This document shows positions 8,851 through 64,000 of a stretch of DNA of 64,000 bases, one piece after another. Origin of the DNA: an uncultured Prolixibacteraceae bacterium. GTDB lineage: Bacteria > Bacteroidota > Bacteroidia > Bacteroidales > FEN-979. The stretch spans positions 1,534 to 65,533 of the forward strand of contig CAZXQU010000006.1 in assembly GCA_964642545.1 (NCBI GenBank). The letters run 5' to 3'. Numbering within the stretch: position 1 is the first letter of the stretch; the number at the start of each line of letters is the position of its first letter. The notes beneath the pieces were generated by a model. It ran no database searches, was not told the origin of the DNA, and was given only the letters and a program-made list of their open reading frames with translations. Both the position numbers and the translations under genes were made by a program.

Positions 8851-9861
8851 ATGATCAAATACTGGATTGCCCGCCAAATGGTGAAACGCACGAAGAAGAG
8901 ACAGTTTTCCACTGAATACCTTGAACAGAAACATGTTGACCCAAACGAACCATTCCCCAACGACAGCTCCTATTTTTACGGTGGTGACAAGAAAGGTAAT
9001 GCCTTTATCACCCGGATGGCTTTTCGCTGGACAAGCCGTCCGCACGAATACTGGCTGGATTTTTACCTCAAAGGGCTTGGATTTTTCGGCATCCGGGAAG
9101 ATCCTGGTCCCGAAGGAGACGGATTTCAGCAGGGAACGTTGAAATACGAGCCTGTTGAAATCGGTAAAATATGGCGTGTTTCTTATGAAGGAAAAGTTGT
9201 TGACGAACTTGGCAAACCGCACGACTGCAAAATAGACCTGCTCTTTACGGGAGAGCATCCCATTTATGATTTTGCGAAAAGTTCCGATCAGCGGATGATC
9301 GCAAGAGCTATTTCCAAAGAGAAGTGGACCAAAGAGTTCTTTCATCACATGAAAGACACCCACCAGGTTCATTACGAGCAAACCGGTAGGTTTACCGGGA
9401 CCATCACCCTGGATGGAACGGCGCATGAGCTAGACATGATAGCCTCCCGCGACCACTCGTTCGGTTCCCGCACCTGGCTTACATGGGATCGGCATTACTG
9501 GATCACCGGGGTTGCCGACAACGGCTATCGCTGGACCGTTACAACCATCAAATGGCAGTTCCTCGGAAGACTGACTGCCGGATTTGTTTTCGGGCCAGAT
9601 GGCGTTGCCGATGCGATCACCGAATGCACCGACCTGGAGACGATCTCCAAAGAACAGCTCCTTCCCAACCATGGCTTCATTGATATCTATACCAGGAGCG
9701 GAAAGCATCACAAACTTGAGTTCTGGCGCAAGGGCGAATTCCCTTACCTGCACGACGGGAAATACCATATGCGAGAAGGCATCGGCACATACAAGTTCGA
9801 TGGCGTTGATGGATTGGGAATGGTAGAGTTCGGGTTTCACGCGGACAGGTACAAGGTATGA
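8851..9861 (+). CDS. Hypothetical protein (336 aa), family not recognised
   Basis: Long ORF with ordinary amino-acid composition, a clean ATG and a candidate promoter. It ends inside a GTATGAGA array. I cannot name any motif in it with confidence. Confidence 0.6.
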   Translation: MIKYWIARQMVKRTKKRQFSTEYLEQKHVDPNEPFPNDSSYFYGGDKKGNAFITRMAFRWTSRPHEYWLDFYLKGLGFFGIREDPGPEGDGFQQGTLKYEPVEIGKIWRVSYEGKVVDELGKPHDCKIDLLFTGEHPIYDFAKSSDQRMIARAISKEKWTKEFFHHMKDTHQVHYEQTGRFTGTITLDGTAHELDMIASRDHSFGSRTWLTWDRHYWITGVADNGYRWTVTTIKWQFLGRLTAGFVFGPDGVADAITECTDLETISKEQLLPNHGFIDIYTRSGKHHKLEFWRKGEFPYLHDGKYHMREGIGTYKFDGVDGLGMVEFGFHADRYKV

Positions 9862-9942
9862 GAGTATGAGAGTATGAGAGTATGAGGGTTTGAGACTATG
9901 AAAGCGTAAGACATTGAGGTAGCGAGAAGCGAGAAGCGAAAA
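9856..9942 (+). repeat. 8-nt periodic tandem array: (GTATGAGA)x4 degrading through GTTTGAGA/CTATGAAA/GCGTAAGA to (AGCGAGA)x3
   Basis: Read directly. The first unit contains the TGA stop of the upstream CDS. The array fills almost the whole spacer up to the next start at 9957. Confidence 0.9.
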
Positions 9943-9956
9943 TAGAACAACAAATT

Positions 9957-12488
9957 TTGAAAACTAAGATTGAACAAAATATCATTCGGCTCAGCGAGAT
10001 CGGGGATGAGCCGGTAGGTGGGAAAGCCCTTGGGCTGAAACGACTAAAAGAGCTGGGACTTCCTGTACCTGAAGCTTTTGTTATCGTTCATCCTGATCCG
10101 GATAACCTTGACCCGGATTTTCTGAATAAACACATTGATTTACTTGGAGAAGGGCCGAAAGCCGTTCGCTCTTCCGCCGTCAGCGAAGATGGGCACGACG
10201 CCTCATTTGCCGGTCAGTTTGAATCATTTTTGAACGTTAACGGCAAGGATGATATCCTGCATGCGATTCGGAATTGTGTGACCGCTGCCTCTTCCGAACG
10301 GGTGAAACATTACTCTCAAAGCCGTATTACAGAAGCCGATCTGCGAATTTCCGTGATTGTTCAGAATATGGTTCCGGCTACTTGCGCCGGCGTAATTTTT
10401 ACTGCAGATCCTGTTACCCACCGGCGCGACAAGGTGATCATCAATGCAGTTTCCGGACTCGGAGAAGATCTTGTCGCAGGCAAAAAAGATGCACACCATT
10501 ACGAACTATTTAAAAGTGGATCAGACCTTGAGAGTGTAATAAAATCCAACGGGCATCTGCTTACATCCGAACAACTCAGGGAATTGATGTCGGGAGCCAA
10601 AAAAGCTGAAGAGCACTTCCGCCAGCCGATGGACATGGAGTGGGCTATCGACGAATCGGACTCGTTATTCTGGCTTCAGGCCCGGCCGGTCACCACTCTT
10701 GATCACGTTCATTACAACGAACTCGATACTATGAAGGGTTTCAGCGACGACATCTGGACTTTAGGAAATATTGGTGAGATGATGCCCGGTGTAACCACTC
10801 CCCTCACCTACTCGGTAGTAGTGGATGCCATTGACTATGGTATGTGTGTTCTTGCAGATAAAGGCGGAGCATTCAGGTTGAAGAACCGCAATGGATATCA
10901 TTATATCCAGATGTTCTACAACAGGCTGTTCGTGAATATGACCCACATGATGGAATACGCCTCAAATATCTGGCTCAACAAGTCGGAAAATATTCAGATT
11001 GCCTTGAGCGTAAAAGTAAATACCGATATCCGTGAAAAGTACAAGGCCCCATTGCTCAAGCGGGTATTCAACTTCGGCAAGCAAGCTTCAACTGTCATCA
11101 GGGCTAACAGTTACCTCAAAAAACTTAGGGTACTGGCCGGCGGTTTCAGGATCGATACAACACTGCCTGTCAGAGAATTGTGGGAATCTCTGGGTAAAGG
11201 CAAAAGGGATGTCAGTGTTGGTTTTGGCCACCATCTCATCACATCCGGGCAATCAGGGAGTCTCTATTCCGCTTTTATGGGGATCATGACAGACGACAAA
11301 AGGTTGCCCGACGCAAACGATCATCACATTGCAACGATACTGCTCTCTGACATCCCGAATATCGAAAGTGCCGATGCAGTGAAATCACTGGAATCTTTTT
11401 CACAAGAGATCAGGAACCATCAGGAATTTGCAAATCAATTTATATCTGTAACCCCGGAGGAGGCGATTTCATTAATCCAACACGAGTCTCCATCAGAAAT
11501 CAGGGAAAAATACCAGAATTTCATCACCCGACATGGCCACCGTTGCATACGCGAGAGCGAACTGCGTGAGAAACCCTGGGAGGAGAACCAGGAACACCTT
11601 GTCCAGTTACTGCAAACAAAGGTCAGGTTCGGTGACCTTGAGCACCGATCCATCGATGTAAAACAGGAGATCCGTAGGACATTGAAGAAACTACCACTCC
11701 ATAAACGATTGGTATTCAAAATCCTTTTACCCACAGCACGAACGGCCGTTGCTCGTAGGGAGATATCTAAAGCTCTGGCGATAAAGATGGTGAATGAACT
11801 TAGGAAGGGGTACAGGGTATTGGCAGAGAAAATGTTCTGCGATACGGGATCAGCGATACGGGATACGGGATCTGTGATCAACGATTCTTTTTCTCGTATC
11901 GCGAATCACGAATCGCGTATCGGACTATTAGATGATACCGATCAAATATACTTTCTGACCCATGAAGAGATTGGGCAGTTAATAGAAACAGGAGACCGCT
12001 CCCTGCTTGAGAAGGCGAACCGTCGCCGGAAACTTTTACCTGAGACTGACAAACTGCAATTCAATGAAATTTGCTTTGGGATCCCCGAACCCATAGAACA
12101 CCCGGAAACAATTGAAATCAAAGAGGGACAACTTCATGGAACTCCTGTGAGCAGCGGAAAAGTTAAAGCCCGTGTACGAATCATCCATACCCTCGAAGAT
12201 GCCGACAAACTGGAGCGGGGAGAGATTATGGTAGCCTCGTTTACTGATATAGGGTGGACTCCCTATTTCAGTATCATTTCAGGCCTTGTCACCGAGATCG
12301 GGAGCCCTCTTTCTCACGGTGCCGTAGTGGCACGGGAATACGGCATCCCAGCAGTGGTTGGCGTAAAAGGAGCCAGGGCATCCCTTACTGATGGTGAATT
12401 TGTCCTCCTCGACGGGGACCGGGGGATTGTTGAAAGGATGAGGGACGAGGGAAGAGGATTACCCCCCAATCCCCTGAAGGGGGAGTAA
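9957..12488 (+). CDS. PEP-utilizing enzyme with rifampin-phosphotransferase-like architecture (N-terminal PEP/pyruvate-binding ATP-grasp, long middle domain, C-terminal swivel His domain)
   Basis: N-terminus GGKALGLKRLKELGLPVPEAFVI, RSSAVSEDG..SFAGQF and DMEWAI. C-terminus TDIGWTPYFSIISGLVTEIGSPLSHGAVVAREYGIPAVVG. The 843 aa length fits. The apparent start is TTG. The substrate is not inferable. Confidence 0.8.
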   Translation: MKTKIEQNIIRLSEIGDEPVGGKALGLKRLKELGLPVPEAFVIVHPDPDNLDPDFLNKHIDLLGEGPKAVRSSAVSEDGHDASFAGQFESFLNVNGKDDILHAIRNCVTAASSERVKHYSQSRITEADLRISVIVQNMVPATCAGVIFTADPVTHRRDKVIINAVSGLGEDLVAGKKDAHHYELFKSGSDLESVIKSNGHLLTSEQLRELMSGAKKAEEHFRQPMDMEWAIDESDSLFWLQARPVTTLDHVHYNELDTMKGFSDDIWTLGNIGEMMPGVTTPLTYSVVVDAIDYGMCVLADKGGAFRLKNRNGYHYIQMFYNRLFVNMTHMMEYASNIWLNKSENIQIALSVKVNTDIREKYKAPLLKRVFNFGKQASTVIRANSYLKKLRVLAGGFRIDTTLPVRELWESLGKGKRDVSVGFGHHLITSGQSGSLYSAFMGIMTDDKRLPDANDHHIATILLSDIPNIESADAVKSLESFSQEIRNHQEFANQFISVTPEEAISLIQHESPSEIREKYQNFITRHGHRCIRESELREKPWEENQEHLVQLLQTKVRFGDLEHRSIDVKQEIRRTLKKLPLHKRLVFKILLPTARTAVARREISKALAIKMVNELRKGYRVLAEKMFCDTGSAIRDTGSVINDSFSRIANHESRIGLLDDTDQIYFLTHEEIGQLIETGDRSLLEKANRRRKLLPETDKLQFNEICFGIPEPIEHPETIEIKEGQLHGTPVSSGKVKARVRIIHTLEDADKLERGEIMVASFTDIGWTPYFSIISGLVTEIGSPLSHGAVVAREYGIPAVVGVKGARASLTDGEFVLLDGDRGIVERMRDEGRGLPPNPLKGE
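11841..11923 (+). repeat. Intragenic in-frame GAT-heptamer element (GATACGG GATCAGC GATACGG GATACGG GATCTGT GATCAAC ... GTATCGC GAATCAC GAATCGC GTATCGG)
   Basis: Read directly. It encodes DTGSAIRDTGSVINDSFSRIANHESRIG inside the PEP-utilizing enzyme. The two halves are partly reverse-complementary (CGATACG / CGTATCG). Confidence 0.85.
12436..12456 (+). repeat. Heptamer array (GGATGAG GGACGAG GGAAGAG) inside the last codons of the PEP-utilizing enzyme
   Basis: Read directly. It encodes the RDEGRG tail. The same unit family occurs at 56183-56232, 57630-57727 and in the parC tail. Confidence 0.8.
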
Positions 12489-12505
12489 GTCCCCTTCAGG
12501 GGATT
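12468..12505. terminator. 15-bp stem-loop between convergent genes (AATCCCCTGAAGGGG / CCCCTTCAGGGGATT), possible bidirectional terminator
   Basis: Positions 12468-12482 pair perfectly with 12491-12505. The TAA stop (12486-12488) sits in the loop. TTT follows on the plus strand. Confidence 0.6.
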
Positions 12506-12521
12506 TAGGGGCGACTTTACT

Positions 12522-18868: not shown

Positions 18869-18984
18869 CTAGCAATGCTCCACCATAGACCCCACTACAG
18901 GGTAATGCTAGTTCCATAGGATTCCTCAACACACTCGTTGTGCGACCATGTAGCTCCTTCTGATAAGTGCAAAGGAGTATACAC

Positions 18985-22783: not shown

Positions 22784-22794
22784 GGAATCAATCC

Positions 22795-22829
22795 CTAATC
22801 GCTAATCGCTAATCGCTGATGGCTAATCG
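22795..22829 (-). repeat. Heptamer array, sense strand (CGATTAG)x5 with one degenerate unit
   Basis: The plus strand reads CTAATCG CTAATCG CTAATCG CTGATGG CTAATCG. The last unit contains the TAG stop of the carbonic anhydrase gene. Confidence 0.9.
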
Positions 22830-23464
22830 TTGGCACCTAAGTTATAGATCTCCTGGATATCTTTCAGTTTCTCCCGGAAATCGATCTTAAGATCAATAAG
22901 GTTTCCGGTTTTCATGTCAAAAACCCACCCATGAACGAGTGGGTATCCTTCGGAAAGATATGTTTTTTGAACCGCAGCCGTTTTGATCACGTTGAGTGCC
23001 TGCTCTTCCACATTCAGTTCAACAAGTCTCCTATACCGTTGTTCTTCATCTCCAATAGCGTTGAGTTCACGCCTGTGAAGGCGGTAAACATCCCGGATGT
23101 TCCTGAGCCAGGGATTCAGGATGCCAAGGTCGCGGGCCTGCATGGCGGCTTTCACTCCTCCGCAGCCATAATGTCCGCAAACAATAATATGTTTAACCTG
23201 AAGTTGATGAATCGCATAATTGATGATACTCATCACATTGAGGTCGTTGTTGCACACCAAGTTGGCAATATTCCGGTGAACAAAGACCTCTCCTGGCTTA
23301 ACACCCATCAACTCTTCCGTAGCAACGCGACTGTCGCTGCATCCGATGTAAAGGAAATCTGGATTCTGGCCTTCAGCAAGATTCTCAAAGAATTCGTTGT
23401 CACCTGCTTTTTTCTCAGCAACCCATCGTTTGTTGTTCTCGAAGATTTGTTCGTAAGTAGTCAT
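22823..23464 (-). CDS. Beta-class carbonic anhydrase
   Basis: Zinc ligand motifs CSDSR and HYGCGG, in a 213-aa protein. Confidence 0.9.
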   Translation of the reverse strand: MTTYEQIFENNKRWVAEKKAGDNEFFENLAEGQNPDFLYIGCSDSRVATEELMGVKPGEVFVHRNIANLVCNNDLNVMSIINYAIHQLQVKHIIVCGHYGCGGVKAAMQARDLGILNPWLRNIRDVYRLHRRELNAIGDEEQRYRRLVELNVEEQALNVIKTAAVQKTYLSEGYPLVHGWVFDMKTGNLIDLKIDFREKLKDIQEIYNLGAND

Positions 23465-23660: not shown

Positions 23661-25448
23661 TTAGACTTCATGGATCAGGATATTGGCATTATAGGCTTTT
23701 ATAATATGTTTTGTCAGCCGATTCAATCCTTTCGGGCCATAAACCTCCAGGGACTCATTCCTGCCCATCACCCATGGGGTGAGGATCAGATCGGGATAAC
23801 CGGTGGTATGATCAGAATGCAGATGGGTGAGGAATGCGTGCTTAGTGTTTTTCGTTGCAAGTCCCTTGATTGGTCCGCCATACCTTTGTGAAAGAGCAGC
23901 TGCCTGCCTGACCAGTCCGGGACCAAAATCGACAATATTAGGGACATCATTTACGACGATCGCGATGGAATATCCCGATTGATGCGGATAGGGGTTGGGG
24001 TTGCCGGAACCCAATATCACAACATGAGTGTTTCCATCGGGAAGTTGTGACGGAATCACATCCGGGAGATGCTTTTCAGGCTGAACAGTGTCTATTTTTC
24101 CCAATTTAAAATCAAGGTAAACCTTTTCCTTTTCAATAGAATGTTTGTTATCTGGATACTGATCTTCATATCTCTTGATCAACCGAAGAGCTTCCAGATA
24201 GTTGCTGTCGGCTTCCAATATATTTATCCGGAACATTAGTGAATCAAACGGGATGATATTGGATACCCTGCCAGCAGCAGTTTCAGATGCTCCCAGAAGC
24301 TGTATGCCAGACCCATCAATCATTTGTCGCGTATCGCTATACGCCTCTTCCGCCATCTTCCGGGAAGTAAGATCCAGCCATGGCAAGGTGGTATCTGAAG
24401 CAGCCCGTTCGGCTGGATAGATGATGTGTTTCTTCATCCTGGGATTTGTTCCACGGTAGACCCAGGTAGGTAAATACCGGATTCCGGATACCCTGATGCC
24501 TGATGCCGGATATTTTGTAAGCTCTACCTGCAGGATCATACCGGCATCAGTGTATCTCCAATACTGGTTGGAATAGAAATTCCCCATCGATGTAGCCACA
24601 AACCCTGAGTCAAGTATACCGCCGGATGTTTTAAAAAAGCGAACCTTTCCGATTATATGCGGATGACTTCCAATCACAATATCAGTACCCGCCGCGATCG
24701 TTTTTTCAATAATGGCTTCCTGCGAGGCAGTTTCATCGCTGTACATCTCCTGACCATAATGGTAAAAGACAATAACGATCTCCGCCCCAGCTTTTCTGGC
24801 GTACAAAATATCCTGCCCGATAGATGCCGTATCTATCAGGTTCAACATGTAGCGATGCTCCTTACATGGATAAAATTCGTTTGATCCATAGGAATAATTC
24901 AGGATTGCAATCGGAATGCCCTTTAAATTGATTACCCTTATTGAATCGTGATCATGTTGTGAATTAAATGTCCCTGAGCGTCCCAATCCGATGGAGTCGA
25001 TCACCCTGATGGTGCGTAATAATCCCTTCTCGCGCATATCCATTGAATGGTTGTTTGCCGTTACCAGAAAGTCGAATCCATTTTTTTTCAATGCCCCAAC
25101 GATCTCATCAGGCGTGTTGAAGGCTGGATATCCGGTATATTCCTTAGTAGCTCCGGCACAAACGGTTTCAAAATTTCCGACGGTGAGGTCATCATCTTCA
25201 AGCCATCTCTTTACCTCAGCGAAAGAGGGATTGAAGTCGAAACCATCTTTCCCAACACGGGCATTTTCAAGTTGCGGTGTGTGGCACATGATGTCACCAA
25301 CGAAAGAGAGGCGGATAGTGATAGTGGAATCGGTATAAGTTGAATCATTCTGGGATCCGGCATGTGCTGCAAGATGAACCCAACAGAGAAATACCAATAA
25401 ACCCGAAAGGTTAAAATTCCTATTCACCACAAAGAGACTAAGACACAA
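23661..25448 (-). CDS. CapA-like metallophosphatase (PGA_cap) fused to a shortened MBL-fold domain; interrupted by an in-frame TAA
   Basis: N-terminus: signal-like peptide plus CapA motifs (SFVGDIMCH, VTANNHSMD, IVIGSHPH). C-terminus: FLTHLHSDHTTG MBL motif ending ILIHEV-stop. The same frame continues for 49 codons down to 23514, with the stop codon at 23511-23513 (FQKGW...HQHHHTSTIEVGQ...). Confidence 0.7.
   Translation of the reverse strand: MCLSLFVVNRNFNLSGLLVFLCWVHLAAHAGSQNDSTYTDSTITIRLSFVGDIMCHTPQLENARVGKDGFDFNPSFAEVKRWLEDDDLTVGNFETVCAGATKEYTGYPAFNTPDEIVGALKKNGFDFLVTANNHSMDMREKGLLRTIRVIDSIGLGRSGTFNSQHDHDSIRVINLKGIPIAILNYSYGSNEFYPCKEHRYMLNLIDTASIGQDILYARKAGAEIVIVFYHYGQEMYSDETASQEAIIEKTIAAGTDIVIGSHPHIIGKVRFFKTSGGILDSGFVATSMGNFYSNQYWRYTDAGMILQVELTKYPASGIRVSGIRYLPTWVYRGTNPRMKKHIIYPAERAASDTTLPWLDLTSRKMAEEAYSDTRQMIDGSGIQLLGASETAAGRVSNIIPFDSLMFRINILEADSNYLEALRLIKRYEDQYPDNKHSIEKEKVYLDFKLGKIDTVQPEKHLPDVIPSQLPDGNTHVVILGSGNPNPYPHQSGYSIAIVVNDVPNIVDFGPGLVRQAAALSQRYGGPIKGLATKNTKHAFLTHLHSDHTTGYPDLILTPWVMGRNESLEVYGPKGLNRLTKHIIKAYNANILIHEV
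24474..24515 (+). repeat. Intragenic in-frame heptamer element (ATACCGG ATTCCGG ATACCCT GATGCCT GATGCCG GATATTT)
   Basis: Six heptamers, 42 nt in total. On the minus strand it encodes YPASGIRVSGIRYL in the CapA-like protein. Confidence 0.75.
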
Positions 25449-27420: not shown

Positions 27421-27503
27421 TGAGGTAGTGAGGTAGTGAGGTAGTGAGGTAGTAAAATGGTGAAATGGTGAAATAGCGAAACTGCCAACTGCCAACTGCC
27501 AAC
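27416..27503 (+). repeat. Composite array: (GGTAGTGA)x5, (AATGGTGA)x2, AATAGCGA, (AACTGCC)x3
   Basis: It fills the whole convergent spacer. The first unit contains the TAG stop of 26308..27420. The last units abut the stop of 27503..28516. Confidence 0.9.
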
Positions 27504-45388: not shown

Positions 45389-45474
45389 GTTCGCTGTTCG
45401 CTTTCCTAATTTCCTAATTTCTTAATTTCCCACATCCCTACTCTCATACTCTCATACCCTCAACCCTCTTACCC
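45389..45474 (-). repeat. Composite array filling the spacer; sense strand has GGTAAGAG GGTTGAGG (GTATGAGA)x2 ... (GGAAATTA-type)x3 ... (GCGAACA)x2
   Basis: The plus strand reads TGTTCGC TGTTCGC TTTCCTAA TTTCCTAA TTTCTTAA TTTCCCAC ATCCCTAC TCTCATAC TCTCATAC CCTCAACC CTCTTACC. Confidence 0.9.
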
Positions 45475-45476
45475 AT

Positions 45477-46964
<1,488 letters not shown>

Positions 46965-46972: not shown

Positions 46973-47009
46973 CCTAATTTCCTAATTTCCTAATTTCGAA
47001 TTTCCTACC
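46973..47009 (-). repeat. Octamer array; sense strand reads GGTAGG AAATTCG AAATTAGG AAATTAGG AAATTAGG
   Basis: The plus strand reads CCTAATTT x3, then CGAATTT CCTACC. It abuts the TGA stop of 47010..50213. Confidence 0.9.
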
Positions 47010-50000: not shown

Positions 50001-50213
50001 GTTGCTGCCAGAAAGGTCGCGCAATGTATTCATCACCCGCTCCTTCATTTCGTTTGCCGCTTTGTGTGTAAAGGTGATTGCCAGGATATGCCTGAAACCA
50101 GGAGGATTTTTCAATACCATCTTCAAGTATTCCCTGACCAGTGAAAATGTTTTTCCTGATCCGGCTGAACTTCGGTAGACGTTGAAACTCACGTGTTGAA
50201 AATCTTCATCCAT
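47010..50213 (-). CDS. UvrD/PcrA-type helicase with C-terminal PD-(D/E)XK nuclease, AddA/RexA-like
   Basis: Walker A SAGSGKTF. Helicase motifs (DEFQDTS, VGDGKQAIYRWR, TIHKAKGLEF). C-terminal nuclease (RPDRVVF..VIDYKTG). Confidence 0.85.
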   Translation of the reverse strand: MDEDFQHVSFNVYRSSAGSGKTFSLVREYLKMVLKNPPGFRHILAITFTHKAANEMKERVMNTLRDLSGSNNLHLAGSSLQMQTALINETGLDGKEIALRAGEALSLILHHYSEFSIGTIDSFSHRIIRAFAHDFGLPVSFAVELESKELLTTAVDLLLEQAGSDVELTRLLVSFLESRMEEDKGWNIDRLLVSFATILLDEEGEVEVKKLASLTMEDFHAISKQLFARIRSIEQQFKKLGEKAQQLIDRKGISETSFYYGKTGIPGYFGYLAQARMDKLEANVRVKATLEEDKWFSSKATTDDITAIKAIKEELQDMYQQAEVLKQTQSGSYHLAKLLSKTIYPLAVLNEIGRVLDGFKRQQNLVHISEFNSRIARIVMREPVPFIYERLGEKFHHVMIDEFQDTSRLQWLNFVPLMENALAGGYFNLVVGDGKQAIYRWRNGDVAQFTSLPALPGREESQLIRQRETLFLQYFNEFKLDSNYRSLPEIVNFNNHFFRWLSQHLDKELQRVYKELEQKSTSSKEGGFVRIEIIAADESDLTYAEKTINRTEDIISQLLEGGYALQDVAILCRTNRQAGRIARDLIIRGIDVVSSESLLLSYSPEVRFILGLIRLLFEPSNTIIQASVVNYLLYTGGLPLESEDFHALLTGIGNVEHPGDHFFTILARNGFNLDRDFILALPIYDLCEVVIRTFGINKSVDPYIQFFLDAVIAYMEKETHSAAGFLEWWEQHKGGLSIVVPDGVNAVRIMTIHKAKGLEFPVVIYPFADEALKKPGKNYLWIEIPEEENLKLKTAFLPVEKQMQETRYADMYEDELVKSLLDVTNVLYVALTRPEEQLYILTTPPPSSSNEMKSLPAFFTGYLQSTGVWEEGKRIYEFGQFSPKHGPSSKPQGVIRTLSTMPSSDWRNAIKIRQRAPEYWDMEDPSGRVDFGSRIHAILAEIREASEIEEALKRALLSGAVSREEEKHIRKILNKVVSHPKLARCFEAAVTIKNEPEILEMQGEASRPDRVVFDGDEVIVIDYKTGRKSRAHHEQIERYGRLLQEIGYQNVRKLLVYLGNIVEVEEV

Positions 50214-50524
50214 CCATCGACGAAAGAACTACGTGGCCAATGGGTTGAAAAATAAAACATCCCGGGAAACTCAAAACCAAAAGAGGAGGACGAGTCCCAG
50301 CTACCATTTGTATCCACCCGCTGGTTCATTGCCTCCAGCATCGAAAAATCCCATATAAAATTGCTTCCTGTTACAGCGTAATTAACAGGAACGACACTTG
50401 TCATGCTTACCCGAAGTGTATCTCCAGGACCGGGCATGTCAGATTGATCGATAGAGATCTGCGAAAAGAGCACAAGTGGGAGACAAAGCAGGAGACAACG
50501 GAGAGTAAAGATACTGGGTTTCAT
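50189..50524 (-). CDS. Hypothetical small secreted protein (possibly a truncated remnant)
   Basis: Signal peptide (LLLCLPLVLFSQ). 111 aa. Its 3' end overlaps the helicase start by 25 nt. No family recognised. Confidence 0.35.
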   Translation of the reverse strand: MKPSIFTLRCLLLCLPLVLFSQISIDQSDMPGPGDTLRVSMTSVVPVNYAVTGSNFIWDFSMLEAMNQRVDTNGSWDSSSSFGFEFPGMFYFSTHWPRSSFVDGWMKIFNT

Positions 50525-50543
50525 GATTTTCTGGTTTCTGGTA

Positions 50544-50609
50544 GGTTTTTGGTTATTGAGTTATTGGTTTTTGGTTATTGGTTATTGGTTATTGAGTTAT
50601 TGGGATATT
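50544..50609 (+). repeat. Heptamer/octamer array (GGTTTTT GGTTATT GAGTTATT GGTTTTT GGTTATT x3 GAGTTATT GGGATATT)
   Basis: Read directly, just after the tamB stop (50615). On the tamB sense strand it is CA-rich (AATAACC). Confidence 0.9.
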
Positions 50610-50614
50610 GGGCT

Positions 50615-55108: not shown

Positions 55109-56182
55109 ATGTCCCTGCCCTTTATCCTAGGTATTGAATCCTCTTGTGATGACACTTCTGCATCTGTGGTGGAAGGCACCATCGTTCGATCAAATGTGAC
55201 TGCCACCCAGGATATCCACAGGAAATTTGGGGGAGTAGTCCCGGAGCTGGCATCCCGTGCTCATCAGCAAAATATCATACCCGTAATTGAAGCCGCAATC
55301 CAACAAGCAAATATAGATAAAAATCAGCTTGCTGCAGTGGCTTTTACACAGGGTCCGGGGCTACTTGGATCGTTGCTTGTAGGATCATCTTTTGCAAAGA
55401 GTTTTGCCCTCGGAATGGGCATCCCACTCATCGAGATTGACCATATGCAAGCCCATATCCTGGCACACTTTCTGGAAGATCTTGAAAAGCCACGCCCCAT
55501 CCCAGAATTTCCTTTCCTCTGCCTGACTGTCTCAGGTGGACATACACAGATCGTCCTGGTTAAGGACTACTTCGAAATGGAGGTTTTAGGGCAAACGATT
55601 GATGATGCGGCCGGGGAGGCGTTTGATAAAACCGCCAAGATCCTTGGGCTTCCTTATCCAGGAGGGCCAGTTATTGATAAACTTGCAGCTAAAGGTTATC
55701 CCTCCCGTTTTTCATTCGCCCGTCCCAATATCCCGGGCCTTGATTACAGCTTCAGTGGTCTCAAAACTTCAATTCTCTATTTCATTCGGGATGAGCTGAG
55801 AAAGGATCCAGAATTTATTGAGAAAAACAGGAATGACCTTTGCGCTTCGATCCAGACAACGATTGTAGAGATCTTAATGTCGAAGTTAAAGTTGGCAGTT
55901 CAAGCGATACGCGATACACGATACGCGATATACAATGACCAGATGCCTGATCCCGGATCACAAACCATTGATGTTGCAATCGCCGGCGGGGTTTCGGCCA
56001 ACTCGGCTCTGCGTAAAGCGCTTCTGGAGGCAGCGGCTTCGGAGGGTTGGCGTGCCTTTATCCCTCCATTTGAATATACAACCGATAATGCCGCAATGAT
56101 TGCTGTAGCTGGGTATTTCAAGTTTATTAAGGGTGAATTTGCCCTTCAATCAACAACATCTTATGCAAGGAGCAGATGGTGA
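55109..56182 (+). CDS. tsaD: tRNA N6-adenosine threonylcarbamoyltransferase TsaD
   Basis: ILGIESSCDDT, GGVVPELASRAH, SGGHTQ, DDAAGEAFDKTAKILGLPYPGGP, AGGVSAN and TDNAAMIA motifs. It is about 19 aa longer than typical because of a repeat insertion. Confidence 0.95.
   Translation: MSLPFILGIESSCDDTSASVVEGTIVRSNVTATQDIHRKFGGVVPELASRAHQQNIIPVIEAAIQQANIDKNQLAAVAFTQGPGLLGSLLVGSSFAKSFALGMGIPLIEIDHMQAHILAHFLEDLEKPRPIPEFPFLCLTVSGGHTQIVLVKDYFEMEVLGQTIDDAAGEAFDKTAKILGLPYPGGPVIDKLAAKGYPSRFSFARPNIPGLDYSFSGLKTSILYFIRDELRKDPEFIEKNRNDLCASIQTTIVEILMSKLKLAVQAIRDTRYAIYNDQMPDPGSQTIDVAIAGGVSANSALRKALLEAAASEGWRAFIPPFEYTTDNAAMIAVAGYFKFIKGEFALQSTTSYARSRW
55906..55962 (+). repeat. Intragenic in-frame GAT-heptamer element (GATACGC GATACAC GATACGC GATATAC AATGACCA GATGCCT GATCCCG GATCACA)
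   Basis: 57 nt. It encodes IRDTRYAIYNDQMPDPGSQ immediately before the conserved AIAGGVSAN strand of TsaD. Confidence 0.9.
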
Positions 56183-56232
56183 GAACGAAGGACGAGGGAA
56201 GAGGGAATAGGGAATAGGGAGTAAGGAAGTTA
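56183..56232 (+). repeat. Heptamer array (AACGAAG GACGAGG GAAGAGG GAATAGG GAATAGG GAGTAAG GAAGTTAG)
   Basis: It starts directly after the tsaD TGA stop. It contains four GGG tracts with 4-nt loops (56195-56218). Confidence 0.9.
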
Positions 56233-56285
56233 GAAAATTATCATATCAAAAATTAGTTTATCTTTGATGTAATAAAATATCCTTT

Positions 56286-56984: not shown

Positions 56985-57671
56985 TTGACCTTCATCAACA
57001 TTCCCACCGAACAAACAACAGCAGTTACAGATGTTCTGCTAGCATTGGTCGCCGCCTCTGTTTGCTTACTCACACTGAAAGCCGGGGCCATAAACAACGC
57101 AAAAAAAGGCAAGATATGGGGCTGGGCTTTCGGATTGCTCGCTTTTGCAGCGCTAACAGGAGCTATAGCACACGGGTTCCAGATGTCAAAGGAACTCAAT
57201 TACATCCTGTGGCAACCGTTGAACCTGGCTCTCGGACTTACCGTCTCGTTGTTTGTTGTGGGTGTCATCTTAGATTTAACCACTGGTTCCCTGCCAAAGT
57301 ACCTCCTCCCGCTGATGATCAGTATCGGGACCTTGTTCTATCTGGTCACCCTATTTTTCCCTGGCTCCTTCCTGGTTTTCATTCTATACGAAGCCGTTGC
57401 AATGTTGTTTTCACTGGTGGTTTATATAGTTCTTTCAACCCGGCATCGCTTGCAAGGGGCATCCCTTATGGCAGCCGGGATCCTGATCACCATCATTGCG
57501 GCAGGCATCCAGGCTAGTGAGGCAGTTCACTTCCAGTGCATCTGGGAGTTCGACCACAATGGAATATTTCACCTCGTCCAGATTATCGGTTTACTGGTTT
57601 TATATGCAGGACTTAGGTTGGACCTCAGGGACGAAAGACGAGGGATGAAAGACGAAGGACGTAAAACGTAA
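56985..57671 (+). CDS. Hypothetical polytopic membrane protein
   Basis: About 7 hydrophobic helices. TTG start. The C-terminal tail DLRDERRGMKDEGRKT is encoded by a heptamer array. Confidence 0.6.
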   Translation: MTFINIPTEQTTAVTDVLLALVAASVCLLTLKAGAINNAKKGKIWGWAFGLLAFAALTGAIAHGFQMSKELNYILWQPLNLALGLTVSLFVVGVILDLTTGSLPKYLLPLMISIGTLFYLVTLFFPGSFLVFILYEAVAMLFSLVVYIVLSTRHRLQGASLMAAGILITIIAAGIQASEAVHFQCIWEFDHNGIFHLVQIIGLLVLYAGLRLDLRDERRGMKDEGRKT

Positions 57672-57727
57672 GAGGTGAGACGTGAGAGGTGAGACGTGGG
57701 AAGTGGAATGTGGGATGTGATATTTGG
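57630..57727 (+). repeat. 14-unit heptamer array (GACGAAA GACGAGG GATGAAA GACGAAG GACGTAA AACGTAA GAGGTGA GACGTGA GAGGTGA GACGTGG GAAGTGG AATGTGG GATGTGA TATTTGG)
   Basis: Read directly. It spans the last 14 codons (13 sense codons plus the TAA stop) of 56985..57671 and the convergent spacer beyond. Confidence 0.9.
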
Positions 57728-58008: not shown

Positions 58009-58064
58009 CAGTCAGCAATCAACAGTCAGCAGTCAAGATTCTCACGTCTCACGTTTCAGGTTTA
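58009..58064 (+). repeat. Heptamer array (CAGTCAG CAATCAA CAGTCAG CAGTCAA GATTCTC ACGTCTC ACGTTTC AGGTTTA)
   Basis: Read directly. The ACGTCTC units are the reverse complement of the GAGACGT units at 57672-57699. Confidence 0.85.
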
Positions 58065-58074
58065 CCACATTAGG

Positions 58075-58094
58075 CACAATAGTTCACAATAGTT
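58075..58094 (+). repeat. Direct 10-nt duplication (CACAATAGTT)x2
   Basis: Read directly. Confidence 0.8.
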
Positions 58095-58126
58095 CTACTG
58101 TGTCCTATGTGCCAGTTGTGGTAACT

Positions 58127-58158
58127 TTCCTAATTTCCTAATTTCCTAATTTCCTAAT
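58127..58158 (-). repeat. Octamer array; plus strand (TTCCTAAT)x4, sense strand (ATTAGGAA)x4
   Basis: It abuts the TAG stop (58159-58161) of the esterase gene. Confidence 0.95.
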
Positions 58159-59127
58159 CTACCTCTTCCCTCTCACGTCCCTCAGCGCTTTACAGCAATC
58201 TGCCAGCGCCTTTTCGGCTTTAGGCATCACCTTGCCAAAAATCACGAAGTCGTGGATCTGGCCTGGATAGATTTTCATACAAGCGTTTACACCAGCTTCC
58301 TGAAGCCGTTTCCCATATGCTTCCGCTTCATCCCGGAGGATGTCAAATTCGGCAATCACAATAAAGGACGGGGGTAGGTCCGACAGGTTGCTGGCAAGCA
58401 GAGGGGATACATAAGGATTTCCAATGTCTGCCAAATTCTCCAGGTAATAACTTGTATACCACTTCATCAACTCCTCAGGGACCCATATCCCAAATCCAAA
58501 TTGCTTGTATGAGAGGGTATTTGTGTCTTTCAGGTTGGTTGCGGGGCAAATCAGGAGCTGAAATTGTATTGAGGGACCTTTTCTGTCGCGGGCCATCATG
58601 GCGATAACAGTGGCCATATTCGCTCCTGCACTATCACCTCCCACAACTATCCTGTCAGGGTCCACGTTCATTGCATCAGACTGGTCAGCAAGCCATTCCA
58701 GCGTGGCATAACCCTCCTCAATAGCAACCGGAAACCGGGCTTCAGGGGAGAGTTGGTAATCAACAGATACGACTAGATAACCCGAGTCAGCACATAAAAT
58801 CGTACATACCGCGTCATAATCATCAAGCGTACCAACTACCCATCCCCCACCATGAAGGTAGAGAAGCACGGGGAAGGGACCCTCGCCTTCTGGAGTGTAA
58901 ACCCGTATGGGGATCTCTCCGAAAGGTCCATCAATCATCATATCCCGCATCGATGCAACAGGGACCGGTTTCAAAGAGAATGCTTTAACAATGTTCTTTT
59001 CCCGAGCCAATTGTGGTGTCAGTTCAGACAAAGGTGGAAGACCTGCAGCCGCAATTGCTGTAAGAAATTGTTCGGCCCTGGGGTCCAGTTCCCCACTCTG
59101 GTAAGAGGGGTAAAAAATATCAGTCAT
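58159..59127 (-). CDS. Alpha/beta hydrolase, hormone-sensitive-lipase-type esterase
   Basis: HGGGW oxyanion motif, GDSAGA nucleophile elbow, and C-terminal DxL...HDF. Confidence 0.85.
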   Translation of the reverse strand: MTDIFYPSYQSGELDPRAEQFLTAIAAAGLPPLSELTPQLAREKNIVKAFSLKPVPVASMRDMMIDGPFGEIPIRVYTPEGEGPFPVLLYLHGGGWVVGTLDDYDAVCTILCADSGYLVVSVDYQLSPEARFPVAIEEGYATLEWLADQSDAMNVDPDRIVVGGDSAGANMATVIAMMARDRKGPSIQFQLLICPATNLKDTNTLSYKQFGFGIWVPEELMKWYTSYYLENLADIGNPYVSPLLASNLSDLPPSFIVIAEFDILRDEAEAYGKRLQEAGVNACMKIYPGQIHDFVIFGKVMPKAEKALADCCKALRDVRGKR

Positions 59128-61240: not shown

Positions 61241-61249
61241 CTACTGCAA

Positions 61250-61315
61250 CTATTTCACTATTTGGCTCCGCCGAGCTCCGCTTCGCTCCGGTTCACTATT
61301 TCGCTATTTCGCTAC
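61250..61315 (-). repeat. Octamer array after the parC stop; sense strand reads AGGTAGCG AAATAGCG AAATAGTG ... CCAAATAG TGAAATAG
   Basis: The plus strand reads CTATTTCA CTATTTGG ... CACTATTT CGCTATTT CGCTACCT. The same unit type occurs at 27456-27479. Confidence 0.8.
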
Positions 61316-64000
61316 CTATAACTCCAACTCCAGTTGCTCGTCGCTCTTCGCTTTTCGCTCTTCGCTGGTTTCGGGTTCGGGGTTCGGGTTTTGAGTTTCG
61401 GGGTTCGGGTTTTGGGTTTCGGGAGCTTTCGGTTTTCGTCCGCGCTTTTTTACGTCTTTCACTTCCTCTTCTACCCTCGTCTCTCTACCCTCGTCCTTCT
61501 TCGCTCTTCCTTCTTCCTTCATCCCTCTTCCCTCGTCCTTCATCCCTCTTCCTTCGTCCCTCGTCCCTCGTCCTTCGTCCCTCGTCTCTCCTCCCTCGTC
61601 CTTCGTCTCTTCCTGCTCACTGTCAACTATTATCGGTTCCAACCAATTCAGTTTCTTTACCGGATAACTTGTGAGCCGTTTCCCTTTTGCCTTGTAACCT
61701 TTAACACCAATGAATTCCTCAACATTGACCTCCTCTTGATCAGCTCCTTTGCTCTTCTGTTTCATGTCAAAAAGAATCTGCAACTGGGGTCGGAAGTCAA
61801 TCGAAAGAGAAAAAAACTGGTCGGCACTGTCAATAAATTCTAGTTTTTTCTCAGTTGGCTCAGGGATAAACCGCTTGATGAAGTACTGTTTTGTTTTGGG
61901 ATCCTGATAGATTATGGTATAAACTCTTTGGGGATCATATTTTTCGATCCGGAGCATATCCTCATCGAAGTGCGAAGAGAGATCAAACGAACTAAATCTA
62001 TAGTGCCCTAACCGACTGAAAATAATGATCCTGTCGGCTCCCGAGAACGCTCCCAACAATGTTCCCCTCTCTTCTGTATTCAGTCTCATCACGGTATCAT
62101 CATACCATATTTTGAGAGACCCCAACGTAGAGACCCCTTCCTGCCGGATCTCGATTTTTTTAATTGCGTATTTTGTGAGTGTATTCCCAATGGAATTGCG
62201 TCCTTTAATTGCAAGATCGGCGAAATTGAAATCGAAGGAATTCTTTTTGATTCTGGGTTTAGGCTTCAGGTCCACTTTCACCACTTCTGCCTCTCCATTT
62301 GGATTCGCTGAAAAATACAGCACTTTGGACCCTGAAGTGCCCTTGGTTACAGTATATTCTTTATCGCGGGTAACTCCGGGAACAGCAAACCGCTTTACCA
62401 TAATTTTACCATTCTTACCATCCCTGTATATCAGGTTATAGATCGTCCGGTTATCATTCTTCATAAAAACCTGAATATGGATCACATCATGGCCAATAAA
62501 CACCTTGTCGGCCACTTTGGTCACCATAAAGGTCCCATCACTTCTGAAAACAATGATATCATCGATATCTGAACAATCACAAACAAACTCGTCGCGACGA
62601 AGGGAGGTGCCTGCAAAACCCTGCTCCCGGTTGATATAGAGTTTCTCATTGGCCGCAGCGACTTTTACGGCTTCGATAGACTCAAAATTCCGAAGTTCGG
62701 TACGTCTGTCGCGCTCTTTCCCATATTTCTTCCGTATCTGGCGAAAATGATCTATGGCATATTCGGTCAGGTAGGCGAGGTGATTTTTCACCACTTCCAT
62801 CTCTTCCCGGATGCCGTTTATAACATCATCGGCTTTGTTGGAGTTGAATTTTGAAATCCGTTCAATCGGTATCTTACGGAGCCGTTTGATATCATCATCG
62901 CTCAAAGGCCGGATAAACTCATGTTCAAATGGTTTCATCCCCTTTCTGATGGCTTTATCTATCTCTTCGTCCGTTTTGCATTTCTTGATTCCTTCGTAAA
63001 CCTCATTCTCGATGAATATCTTTTCGATAGAGGCATAATGCAACTGTTCGTTCAGCTCGTTCAGCCGAATTTCCAGCTCCTTCTTCAGCAGGTGAACCGT
63101 ATGACCGGTCGATATCCGTAAAATTTCGGAGACTCCTACAAAGCGTGGTTTGCCATCCTCAATGATACAGCAATTCGCAGAGATAGGAATCTCGCATTGC
63201 GTAAAGGCATAGAGGGCATCCATGGTTGTATCGGGGGAGACACCGGGGGCAAGGTGAATAAGAATCTCAACATTTCTTGCCGTGTTGTCATCAATCTTCC
63301 GAATCTTGATCTTTCCTTTGTCGTTGGCTGTCAGGATGGACTCGATCACCGACTCCGTGGTGGTTCCATAAGGGATCTCACTGATTACCAGTGTCTTTTT
63401 ATCCAACAAGCTTACCTTTGCTCTCAACCGGATCTTGCCACCCCGCAGGCCTTCGTTGTATTTTGAAACATCAGCCAACCCGCCCGTAGGAAAATCCGGA
63501 AAAAGTTCAAATTCCTTTCCCTGCAATACCTTGATGGATGCCTCAATCAGCTCATTGAAGTTGTGCGGTAGGATCTTGGATGCCAGCCCAACAGCAATTC
63601 CTTCCACTCCCATTGCAAGCAACAGAGGGAACTTGACCGGAAGAGTAATTGGTTCTTTGTTTCTTCCGTCGTAGGAGGCTTTCCAGTTTGTTGTCTTCGG
63701 ATTGAATACTACATCCAGGGAAAATTTTGATGGCCTTGCTTCGATATAACGGGGAGCTGCAGCGCTGTCGCCGGTATGGATATTTCCCCAGTTTCCCTGG
63801 GTGTCGATTAACAGATCTTTTTGTCCAAGTTGCACGAGGGCATCCCCAATGGAGGCATCCCCATGTGGGTGATATTTCATCGTGTGTCCGATGATATTGG
63901 CAACTTTATTGTATCGCCCGTCATCTAGTTCCTTCATGGCATGAAGAAGCCTCCGCTGCACCGGCTTAAGTCCATCGAGAATTTCAGGCACCGCCCGTTC
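61316..64000 (-). CDS. parC: DNA topoisomerase IV subunit A (ParC-type), N-terminus outside window, with repeat-encoded C-terminal tail
   Basis: DGLKPVQRRLLHAM, HPHGDASIGDALV, a type IIA breakage-reunion domain and a beta-pinwheel CTD. The frame is open to the window edge. The ParC rather than GyrA call rests on HPHGDASI and the lack of a GyrA box. Confidence 0.8.
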   Translation of the reverse strand, partial: ERAVPEILDGLKPVQRRLLHAMKELDDGRYNKVANIIGHTMKYHPHGDASIGDALVQLGQKDLLIDTQGNWGNIHTGDSAAAPRYIEARPSKFSLDVVFNPKTTNWKASYDGRNKEPITLPVKFPLLLAMGVEGIAVGLASKILPHNFNELIEASIKVLQGKEFELFPDFPTGGLADVSKYNEGLRGGKIRLRAKVSLLDKKTLVISEIPYGTTTESVIESILTANDKGKIKIRKIDDNTARNVEILIHLAPGVSPDTTMDALYAFTQCEIPISANCCIIEDGKPRFVGVSEILRISTGHTVHLLKKELEIRLNELNEQLHYASIEKIFIENEVYEGIKKCKTDEEIDKAIRKGMKPFEHEFIRPLSDDDIKRLRKIPIERISKFNSNKADDVINGIREEMEVVKNHLAYLTEYAIDHFRQIRKKYGKERDRRTELRNFESIEAVKVAAANEKLYINREQGFAGTSLRRDEFVCDCSDIDDIIVFRSDGTFMVTKVADKVFIGHDVIHIQVFMKNDNRTIYNLIYRDGKNGKIMVKRFAVPGVTRDKEYTVTKGTSGSKVLYFSANPNGEAEVVKVDLKPKPRIKKNSFDFNFADLAIKGRNSIGNTLTKYAIKKIEIRQEGVSTLGSLKIWYDDTVMRLNTEERGTLLGAFSGADRIIIFSRLGHYRFSSFDLSSHFDEDMLRIEKYDPQRVYTIIYQDPKTKQYFIKRFIPEPTEKKLEFIDSADQFFSLSIDFRPQLQILFDMKQKSKGADQEEVNVEEFIGVKGYKAKGKRLTSYPVKKLNWLEPIIVDSEQEETKDEGGETRDEGRGTRDEGRGMKDEGRGMKEEGRAKKDEGRETRVEEEVKDVKKRGRKPKAPETQNPNPETQNPNPEPETSEERKAKSDEQLELEL
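61337..61612 (-). repeat. Intragenic heptamer arrays forming the parC 3' end: sense GACGAGG/GAAGAGG/GATGAAG units, then CCGAAAC/CCAAAAC/CCGAACC units, then CGAAGAG/CGAAAAG units
   Basis: Read directly. It encodes RDEGRGT-type 7-aa repeats, PETQNPN repeats and the EERKAKSDEQ tail. Confidence 0.9.

Follow-up and report, generated by a model that had tools for sequence, protein, structure and literature searches.

Tandem 7- and 8-nucleotide arrays beside stop codons and in tolerant coding sites of an uncultured Bacteroidales bacterium, probably generated by slippage

A 64-kb stretch of DNA (the window) from an uncultured, Prolixibacteraceae-like member of the Bacteroidales carries 32 dispersed blocks of tandem 7- and 8-nt units, several of them composite (e.g. 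27415-27504 and 45388-45474). These arrays are a new example of the described class of short tandemly repeated repetitive (STRR) DNA, or heptamer simple-sequence repeats (SSRs), and not a new kind of element. The explanation we favour, and consider probable though far from assured, is that they are lineage-specific microsatellites with 7/8-nt units, generated by slippage, which survive only where the sequence is unconstrained and for which no dedicated function is required. It is based on the specificity of the period, a density peculiar to one clade, the gain, loss and change of copy number seen at orthologous sites, the exclusion of arrays from promoters, and their tolerance in loops, linkers and tails. 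It draws further support from heptamer SSRs of two other phyla, which follow the same rules of placement and for which no function was found (PMC4692102).

Arrays were called with Tandem Repeats Finder (TRF) and their units confirmed by reading the sequence; the chance expectation was taken from 30 second-order Markov simulations of the window. At a TRF score of at least 30 there were 26 period-7 and 18 period-8 rows, against simulated means of 1.0 and 1.8, and at a score of at least 40 there were 15 and 10, against none in the simulations. Periods of 5, 6 and 9-12 were near chance level, so the assertion in the initial annotation of this DNA that units of 3, 6 or 9 nt never occur is true above noise. 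At the loci listed there the TRF rows had period 7 or 8, or a multiple (14, 15, 16, 21, 22 or 24), everywhere except at 61250-61291, where a weak row has period 10; the adjacent 61292-61314 has period 8. Clean head-to-tail units include (GTATGAGA)n, (AGGTAGTG)n, (GGAAATTA)n, (GGACGAG/GGAAGAG)n and (AATAACC)n. That unit families recur was likewise evident on reading: GGAAATTA is present at six loci within 22 kb and the GGACGAG/GGAAGAG family at four, and the order GTATGAGA then AGCGA(R)A is common to two unlinked loci. Units grade into one another stepwise along the arrays, a pattern typical of local duplication combined with point mutation. No known RNA families and no tRNAs were found in the window.

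The placement of the arrays follows the organisation of the genes. Counting spacers of at least 15 nt, arrays occur in 11 of 23 co-directional spacers (32% of bases), as had been stated initially, in three of four convergent spacers (70% of bases), and in none of the five divergent ones, if a weak, AT-rich row called by TRF at 8697-8715 (3.6% of bases) is set aside. The three convergent spacers originally described as all those present are indeed filled, but an array-free fourth, of 33 nt (12489-12521), had been overlooked. Taken by itself the window gives a borderline contrast between spacer types (Fisher p=0.05). Independent regions of related genomes have arrays in three of 18 divergent and 35 of 83 other spacers, which brings the totals to 3 of 23 against 49 of 110 (p=0.005) and supports the non-random placement reported at first. 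At all 16 gene-end loci the array overlaps the stop codon or begins no more than 7 nt from it, and in the six spacers that are only partly filled it lies on the stop side every time. The Bacteroidetes -7 box TAnnTTTG is found 18-34 nt upstream of starts in four of the five divergent spacers, and likewise in array-free co-directional spacers and in the non-array part of 56183-56285, but it is missing from all 10 co-directional spacers that arrays fill; the arrays therefore occupy promoter-free and presumably co-transcribed DNA.

No convincing intrinsic terminator, in the sense of a GC-rich stem-loop followed by a U tract, was found in the array-filled spacers, and a U tract is lacking from the hairpin at 27415-27504. 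Terminator-like sites are about as frequent as expected from shuffling (17 against 19.1+/-4.4 at 26-46 kb, and 28 against 19.4+/-3.5 at 44-64 kb), and only two of them touch arrays (45468-45486 and 61396-61424), both with low-GC, wobble-rich stems. Sigma-70 promoters and intrinsic terminators were accordingly rejected as the cause of the array spacers, both being at shuffle level.

Relatives that share gene order with the window were collected by protein search and contig look-ups, the APH-RapZ protein being 80, 72, 70, 70, 66, 65, 60 and 58% identical. The genome of the window is absent from the GTDB representatives, among which an uncultured Prolixibacteraceae metagenome-assembled genome (MAG) matched best, with 70% identity at the protein level, and an exact look-up of the window's own protein gave no match. 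Across the same 21 kb of shared gene order the window has 6.8 arrays per 10 kb, the relatives at 80-70% identity have 4.2, 3.6, 2.3 and 1.9, those at 66-65% have 1.9 and 1.6, and the last two have 0.6 (60%) and none (58%). Most of the more distant relatives have none (range 0-1.4), and 78 other loci from the FCB (Fibrobacteres-Chlorobi-Bacteroidetes) group mostly have 0-2 per 10 kb. Two of the divergent spacers are about 93% conserved and are array-free in all syntenic relatives. Orthologous array-bearing spacers, compared across L081, L084, L086 and L088, range from 3-9 nt without any array to 82-208 nt of arrays. Both the copy number at a given site (AGCGAAC two or 12 times; GGAAATTA 3.4 or seven times) and the unit itself (GGAAATTA or GAAATAC) may differ, and some orthologous spacers have no array at all.

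Between assemblies that are 99.98-99.995% identical (L081/L082/L083 and L084/L085), no differences in copy number were found; the arrays are therefore neither hypermutable contingency loci nor products of assembly. It is true that short-read assemblers can collapse or break at repeats, and that L001 and several metagenome contigs end within arrays. However, arrays stand at orthologous positions in independent assemblies from JGI, ENA, NCBI and Logan, one species is represented by three assemblies whose arrays are the same at every base, and arrays in genes preserve the reading frame. An origin in assembly or sequencing error is thus effectively refuted.

Metagenomes were scanned with a single query, (GGAAATTA)3. 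The query was present in at least 117 contigs, with a GC content of 27-60% among the matches listed. Among viral contigs it had only two hits, so nothing points to carriage by phage. In one lineage of about 59% GC (contigs FWPU01*/FWWM01*) entire spacers consist of giant, near-perfect hairpins, each pairing an octamer array rich in AT with the inverted complement of that array (L092 6233-6411, L172 5948-6157, L186 1549-1720, L196 7333-7461 and L202 1290-1416). One example, (GGAAATTG)9-loop-(CAATTTCC)11, has a minimum free energy (MFE) of about -100 kcal/mol, and up to 73 Watson-Crick pairs are formed in this lineage; the G-rich arm invariably comes first, and several other octamer families behave alike.

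About half of the array bases in the window lie within open reading frames (ORFs) and are translated. The gene-end loci of the initial annotation are real, but the arrays are not confined to them: six further arrays, missing from its list, are inside ORFs (11841-11922, 24492-24511, 35782-35865, 45243-45259, 45860-45929 and 55904-55930). Of the loci it did list, 12436-12457 lies within an ORF and the arrays at 36252 and 57627 start within one, so that they encode, or extend into, C-terminal tails. The array at 61336-61607, described there as filler after a gene, turns out to be an in-frame insert in the C-terminal linker of ParC (gene 61316-64000, minus strand). A distinct GATACGC/GATCCCG family occurs in frame in the PPDK-like enzyme, the Exo_endo_phos nuclease, the NTP-transferase, the APH-RapZ linker and TsaD, and two coding arrays that are inverted pairs form strong hairpins (z -4.7 and -6.5). 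Since 7 is coprime to 3, a heptamer array encodes the same heptapeptide repeat in all three frames (e.g. AIRDTRY). To judge from sequence and alignment, the TsaD insert, the APH-RapZ linker and the ParC linker are tolerant places. The Bacteroidota ParC proteins compared (P0242-P0252) have a variable, charged and disordered linker followed by a conserved end motif (...EQLELEL or ...QMELPL); the linker varies in length and in several lineages shows a 7-residue periodicity, which suggests repeated insertion of heptamer arrays.

These in-frame inverted arrays resemble in-frame palindromic insertions, and small mobile elements or their remnants, akin to MITEs (miniature transposable elements with inverted repeats) or Rickettsia palindromic elements (RPEs), could be imagined to insert at gene ends and in genes. 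The recurring families, and the ordered GTATGAGA then AGCGARA at two unlinked loci, would fit such a history. Against it, such elements are discrete, with a family consensus, terminal inverted repeats and defined ends, and same-site inserts in orthologous genes differ in unit and copy number and share no full-length consensus. Copies vary in unit number, and orthologous arrays change by gain and loss of units. Inspection of array flanks revealed no terminal inverted repeats or target-site duplications, although no dedicated search was made, and Pfam found no transposase domain, nor any domain of RAYT, the transposase of repetitive extragenic palindromic (REP) sequences, among the window ORFs. 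We regard this explanation as very improbable.

The favoured explanation can be set out as follows. Strand slippage would generate the arrays and drive their turnover, on the assumption that a looped-out unit of 7-8 nt is poorly recognised by mismatch repair, and this regime of slippage would be confined to a single Bacteroidales (Prolixibacteraceae-like) clade whose replication or repair machinery permits it. What was observed is the resulting distribution: arrays persist only in unconstrained sequence, namely in promoter-free, presumably transcribed DNA, from a stop to the next start or to a convergent stop, and inside genes if they remain in frame and fall in surface loops, interdomain linkers or disordered tails. 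A deletion bias would strip other non-functional DNA, so that arrays would come to end flush with the stop and with the next initiation region or promoter; divergent spacers, being filled with promoters, would exclude them. The uneven strand composition, G-rich by stops and C/A-rich by starts, would be a secondary filter or a mutational polarity.

That composition merits closer attention. In the sense of the upstream gene G exceeds C at 14 of the 16 gene-end loci (p=0.004), comprising all six on plus-strand genes and eight of 10 on minus-strand genes; as it appears on both DNA strands, the bias tracks transcription and not replication. The two CA-rich exceptions noted initially (44623-44693, after the NTP-transferase gene, and 50544-50609, after TamB) are as described, and the orthologous spacers of relatives are CA-rich too. 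The claim that arrays are mostly sense-oriented, which stands in the window, fails in the relatives: in their other regions the bias is gone, with 18 co-directional sub-arrays G>C and 20 C>G. What the relatives do show is that in all eight composite spacers G-rich, C-poor units lie by the stop and C/A-rich, G-poor or AGCGAAC units by the next start. G-type units are flush with stops in 27 of 53 cases, against five of 42 for those in the opposite orientation. Inverted array pairs have the G-rich arm first in 16 cases and last in none, and blocks with a switch of skew are G-first by 34 to 7; the ParC block 61292-61423, in the window itself, is C-first. 'G-rich after stops, C/A-rich before starts' is the same thing as a strand-symmetric chirality in which the G-rich arm comes first, and selection relative to genes could therefore also yield it.

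As RNA, the co-directional arrays are essentially unstructured (MFE 0 to -9.5), whereas the convergent 27415-27504 folds (z -4.85). Hairpin stems are nearly all Watson-Crick (e.g. 73 Watson-Crick pairs to two G-U), and neither strand is consistently better folded. Selection at the RNA level on the hairpin arrays was therefore rejected: neither the asymmetry between G-U and A-C nor the MFE of the two strands gave a signal that would point to selection on the transcribed strand.

In the principal rival explanation the arrays have a function as RNA within the polycistronic mRNAs of a phylum that dispenses with Shine-Dalgarno pairing, where G-rich, C-poor units behind stops and unstructured, C/A-rich and G-poor units ahead of starts would have a tuning effect. 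They might serve as S1-type standby sites or enhancers, couple or uncouple translation, or create or prevent sites where Rho loads; inverted arrays would form hairpins at the 3' end and make transcripts more stable, a role already suggested for STRR and REP. This would accord with the position of arrays in co-transcribed, promoter-free spacers, with the lack of structure in the co-directional arrays and the folding of the convergent one, with a composition kept across lineages at particular loci (the TamB and NTP-transferase genes are both followed by CA-rich arrays), and with the G-type units flush with stops and the C-type or AGCGAAC units beside starts. Comparable functions were suggested in earlier work on TAACTGA repeats that lie upstream of starts (PMC4679880) and on STRR hairpins (PMC2670836). 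However, arrays are dispensable at any one locus, the same spacer measuring 3-9 nt in some relatives; the unit sequence at a locus is not conserved, nor is sense orientation kept in relatives; the stems are as described above; and no effect on expression was found for the Xanthomonas heptamers (PMC4692102). A role of this kind is possible but rather unlikely.

Alternatively, the arrays might be laid down by an active, polar process acting on DNA: either a reiterative or templated repeat-adding polymerase that extends the 3' ends of breaks, followed by rejoining, which would leave both strands reading 5'-(G-rich)n(C-rich)m-3' in the manner of a head-to-head telomere fusion, or copying by template switches, which would both make and homogenise inverted arrays. 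G-first order independent of strand and transcription, and matched in Xanthomonas, where pairs are 'always convergent' (PMC4692102), is what such a process would leave behind, as are hairpin arms that are near-perfect Watson-Crick complements, units restricted to 7-8 nt, and the same units in genomes of widely differing GC. Yet Pfam found no reverse transcriptase or other candidate enzyme among the window ORFs, each genome holds many unit families, the arms of pairs in the clade are often non-complementary, the ParC block runs C-first, and G-first order is open to the selective explanation given above. We think a process of this kind distinctly improbable.

Slippage, which we continue to favour, does not account for everything, and several observations weigh against it. 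It was not seen to operate between the near-identical assemblies. Pure local slippage does not predict that (GGAAATTA)3 should occur across so wide a range of GC, and the six GGAAATTA loci in 22 kb and the shared order of families at two unlinked loci point the same way. The strong G-first polarity is left unexplained; background composition, tried as its cause, was rejected, with a GC skew in array-poor relatives of only +0.03 after stops and -0.03 before starts. Contact with the stop at every gene-end locus may mean that the origin of the arrays is itself linked to stops. Unit length, anchoring at stops and G-first polarity recur across this Bacteroidales clade, the 59%-GC lineage and Xanthomonas. 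It could be, from the 7-8-nt units, the stop anchoring, the same units at 27-60% GC and the exceptionless order of inverted pairs in unrelated phyla, that one active mechanism is shared by all of them, whether a polar repeat-adding or break-healing activity on DNA or a conserved post-transcriptional reading of G-type units after stops and C/A-type units before starts; we think this improbable.

The individual arrays are collected in Table 1. The gene map on which they are placed is backed by Pfam, which supports all large ORFs as real genes; these include a chemotaxis cluster, BipA, proteins sorted by the type IX secretion system (T9SS), an RpoD-like sigma factor, HtrA, TamB, TsaD, UvrD-like and PD-(D/E)XK nucleases, an APH-RapZ_C fusion and ParC.

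Table 1. Tandem 7/8-nt arrays of the window, with their setting and what was observed at each (positions are those of the window; a point marks an array assigned to neither strand)
Position	Strand	Array	Setting	Basis	Observations
9856-9942	+	(GTATGAGA)~5.8 degenerating into (AGCGAGA)2.7	co-directional spacer	TRF	first unit contains the stop codon of gene 8851-9861; sense G 25, C 4
11841-11922	+	inverted heptamer pair (GCGATAC/GGGATAC ... GTATCGC)	in frame in PPDK-like gene 9957-12488	TRF, translation	folds as a hairpin, MFE -38 kcal/mol, z -4.7
12436-12457	+	(GGACGAG/GGAAGAG)~3	encodes C-terminal tail ...RMRDEGRG... of gene 9957-12488		
22790-22829	-	sense (AGCGATT)5.7	fills 39-nt co-directional spacer after carbonic anhydrase gene 22823-23464		
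24492-24511	-	short, CCTGATG x2.9 (+ strand)	in ORF, PGA_cap gene 23661-25448	TRF score 33, weak	
27415-27504	.	(AGGTAGTG)4.9, (AAATGGTG)2.5, (AACTGCC)3.6	convergent spacer, all arrays	TRF	G-rich arm first; ends pair into a hairpin, MFE -27.8, z -4.85
35782-35865	+	heptamers, GATACGC and GATGCCT families	in frame in gene 35092-36276	TRF, translation	split the Exo_endo_phos_3 domain, which Pfam finds in two stretches
36252-36304	+	(GGAAATTA)6.5	over last 8 codons and stop of gene 35092-36276	TRF	orthologous array in L081 and L088
36696-36729	-	(GGAAATTA)3.4, in sense of radical-SAM gene 36727-37917	convergent spacer		7 copies in L081 ortholog
37982-38041	-	GTCAGGA-like units, then (GGAAATTA)2.9	after stop of gene 38047-40176		array absent at this site in L081, L084 and L088
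44630-44694	-	CA-rich, G-poor (sense CAAATAA, TCAAATC)	between NTP-transferase and PDDEXK genes		spacer has 82 nt of arrays in the window, 3-9 nt in L081/L088, (CAATCAA)5 in L086
45243-45259	-	short (GATACGG)2.4	in ORF, NTP-transferase gene 44682-45386	TRF	motif also in L084 ortholog
45388-45474	-	sense (GGGTATGA/GTATGAGA), then (GGAAATTA)3.6, then (AGCGAAC)2	all-array spacer		abuts the stop and, at its other end, the next ATG; RNA unstructured (MFE -1.4)
45860-45929	-	inverted arrays, sense (GCGATAC)3.6 + (GTATCCC)5.6	in frame, APH-RapZ interdomain linker		encodes MRYAIRDMQLPYPVSRIPYPVS; hairpin z -6.5; linker hypervariable among relatives
46973-47007	-	sense (GGAAATTA)4.5	fills UvrD-like to APH-RapZ spacer	TRF	
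50528-50612	-	CA-rich, sense (AATAACC)8.3	after TamB, flush with next ATG	TRF	RNA MFE 0; orthologous spacers also CA-rich
55904-55930	+	(GCGATAC)3.9	in frame inside TsaD	TRF, translation	within a ~15-20-residue insert (around AIRDTRYAIYNDQMPDPGSQ) that aligns to gaps against E. coli TsaD (4ydu)
56190-56229	+	(GGAAGAG/GGAATAG)4.4	after TsaD stop	TRF	-7 box TATCTTTG in non-array remainder of spacer 56183-56285
57627-57719	+	heptamers GACGAAA, then GACGTGA, then GTGGGAT	from 45 nt inside gene 56985-57671 into convergent spacer		
58009-58158	-	sense (GGAAATTA)4.1, non-repeat DNA, (ACGTGAG)~3, (CTGACTG/TTGACTG)~4	after esterase gene 58159-59127		
61292-61314	-	(TAGCGAAA)2.9	directly after ParC stop codon	TRF	
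61336-61607	-	in gene order (GGACGAG/GGAAGAG)19, (CCCGAAA)8, (AGCGAAG)4	in frame, ParC C-terminal linker		terminal motif EQLELEL follows and is conserved in relatives

Some neighbouring features deserve mention in their own right. Gene 36315-36677 (120 aa, '23S rRNA intervening-sequence protein', PF05635) is bracketed by the inverted GGAAATTA arrays 36252-36304 and 36696-36729, and the same bracketing is found in L081 (20211-20717). It is complete only in these two; in L086 and L088 the array on the radical-SAM side alone is visible, or the unit differs (GAAATAC in L086). Avd proteins of diversity-generating retroelements belong to the PF05635 family. A small hairpin, GGGCTTTAGCCC (37923-37936), which lies just upstream of where the radical-SAM gene starts, is conserved as GGGCTTCAGCCC in L081 (spacer 18887-18980), although the arrays around it occur only in the window. 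In L210 (19459-21177) a fragmented restriction-modification set of MmeI/Eco57I type lies between spermidine-synthase-like and radical-SAM genes, where the window has arrays. At 50189-50524 (minus strand) an ORF of only 111 aa, whose start context is conserved, takes the place that in relatives, from TamB to the UvrD-like helicase, is held by a T9SS gene (Por_Secre_tail) of 428-431 aa. The short ORF is probably a deletion remnant; the relative L086 lacks the gene. A complete chemotaxis-type cluster occupies 327-6896 on the plus strand (CheW, a methyl-accepting protein, CheA-CheW-REC, CheB and a hybrid kinase).

Where STRR-type heptamer arrays come from and what they do has been in question since about 1990, and published work has brought to light no function. 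The present clade offers a graded series, in which one 21-kb syntenic block runs from array-free to array-saturated, so that gains, losses and turnover of units are open to direct reading and the richness in arrays can be set against the content of replication and repair genes. The in-frame arrays in essential proteins (TsaD, ParC and the PPDK-like enzyme) would make 7-nt slippage a source of disordered linkers and heptapeptide repeats in bacterial proteins. Contact with stop codons, exclusion from spacers with a TAnnTTTG box, and G-first polarity are rules that any mechanism must obey. Even if the arrays are tolerated junk, they still cause contig breaks, mis-called stops and starts, and spurious low-complexity tails in the annotation of MAGs.

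How the arrays compare with known repeats can now be considered. CRISPR arrays have repeats of about 23-50 nt with unique spacers of similar length between them; here the 7-8-nt units abut directly, with no spacers, and the initial annotation was right to set CRISPR aside. Contingency SSRs of phase-variable genes are found in promoters or 5' coding regions of surface or restriction genes and vary in copy number between near-identical strains. The present arrays are at the 3' ends and in the linkers of housekeeping genes, and near-identical assemblies do not differ. With REP sequences and bacterial interspersed mosaic elements (BIMEs) they share a location in transcribed DNA at gene 3' ends and in convergent spacers, away from promoters, and the formation of some hairpins. 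REP sequences, however, are imperfect palindromes of 20-40 nt mobilised by RAYT, and these are tandem, non-palindromic units of 7-8 nt, as had been recognised at the outset. RPEs, which Ogata and co-workers reportedly described in 2000 as selfish in-frame insertions in protein genes, are similar in being hairpin-forming in-frame repeats at surface-tolerant sites of conserved housekeeping proteins (here TsaD, the PPDK-like enzyme and the APH-RapZ linker). They differ in being discrete elements of about 100-150 bp with a consensus, whereas the arrays consist of variable 7-nt units without element boundaries.

TAACTGA repeats are known from Beggiatoaceae, cyanobacteria and five Bacteroidetes (MacGregor 2015, PMC4679880). 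They often lie a few nt upstream of a start, in forward orientation; close relatives may lack repeats at the site, and other heptamer arrays share the same spacers in Gramella, Aequorivita and Elizabethkingia (PMC4679880). Intergenic direct repeats of heptamers and sites that are empty in close relatives are common to both systems. The TAACTGA unit, however, is not prominent here, most window arrays are anchored at stops and not at starts, and the C/A-rich start-proximal units (AACCTGA, ACCCTGA, CAATCAA and AATAACC) are similar in kind only.

STRR sequences and the present arrays have in common dispersed heptamer arrays, differing unit families side by side, and a place in intercistronic spacers; they differ in phylum, in most of their units, and in that octamers are common here. 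The classical STRR units, as Mazel is said to have given them in 1990, are CCCCAGT, TTGGTCA and CAACAGT. Only one window unit is related to these, CAGTCAA (58009-58036), which is a rotation of CAACAGT, and AATGACC in the relatives L092 (10667-10717) and L094 is a rotation of the reverse complement of TTGGTCA. This hints that different phyla use a limited repertoire of units, either by sharing it or by converging on it; a literature search by STRR unit sequences returned only unrelated papers. In the strict sense these are not STRR sequences, for the host belongs to the Bacteroidota (T9SS cargo with Por_Secre_tail domains, the type of ParC, and best matches to Bacteroidales and Prolixibacteraceae MAGs) and the units differ. 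A cyanobacterial origin of the DNA, which the heptamers might suggest, was rejected on the evidence of these genes. In cyanobacteria STRR hairpins lie between the cistrons hupS and hupL, where transcript stability or translational coupling has been proposed (PMC2670836).

In the general sense of long SSRs or STRR, the likeness is close: tandem units dominated by 7 nt and far above chance, dispersed loci, several families that are often adjacent, and an excess specific to a lineage. The view that the arrays belong to no described class is thus not sustained, heptamer arrays of this sort having already been published. Heptamers are the commonest category of long SSRs of 5-11 nt, for which polymerase slippage was proposed (Mrazek 2007, as summarised in PMC4679880), and the match between about 7 nt and the segment of DNA that contacts the polymerase is likewise a published idea (Mrazek 2007, as cited in PMC4679880 and PMC4692102). 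The nearest parallel is with GGGAATC in Xanthomonas and GGGGA(C/T)T in Nostoc PCC 7120, which lie near or over stop codons with the G-rich strand as the coding strand (Rehm et al. 2015, PMC4692102). These heptamers are rarer between divergent genes, vary in length among related genomes, and in Xanthomonas form inverted pairs that are 'always convergent'; no effect on expression was found in Xanthomonas and no function was assigned (PMC4692102). These traits reappear here: 7-nt units at very many, mostly intergenic loci, nearer to the upstream ORF and overlapping its stop, a G-rich coding strand (a tendency weaker in the relatives), scarcity between divergent genes, inverted pairs with the G-rich arm first, and loci that are kept as length, copy number and sequence vary, with no tie to gene function. 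The G3-4 tracts of Xanthomonas and Nostoc, four units of which could form a G-quadruplex, are not general here; G3 tracts occur in only a minority of arrays (56190-56229 and 61474-61607), and since GGAAATTA, GTATGAGA, AGCGAAC and AATAACC have none, a G-quadruplex cannot be the common property. What this Bacteroidota host adds to the known class is its phylum, the prominence of 8-nt units alongside 7-nt ones, many unit families mostly without G-tracts, and the large fraction of array sequence that is translated.

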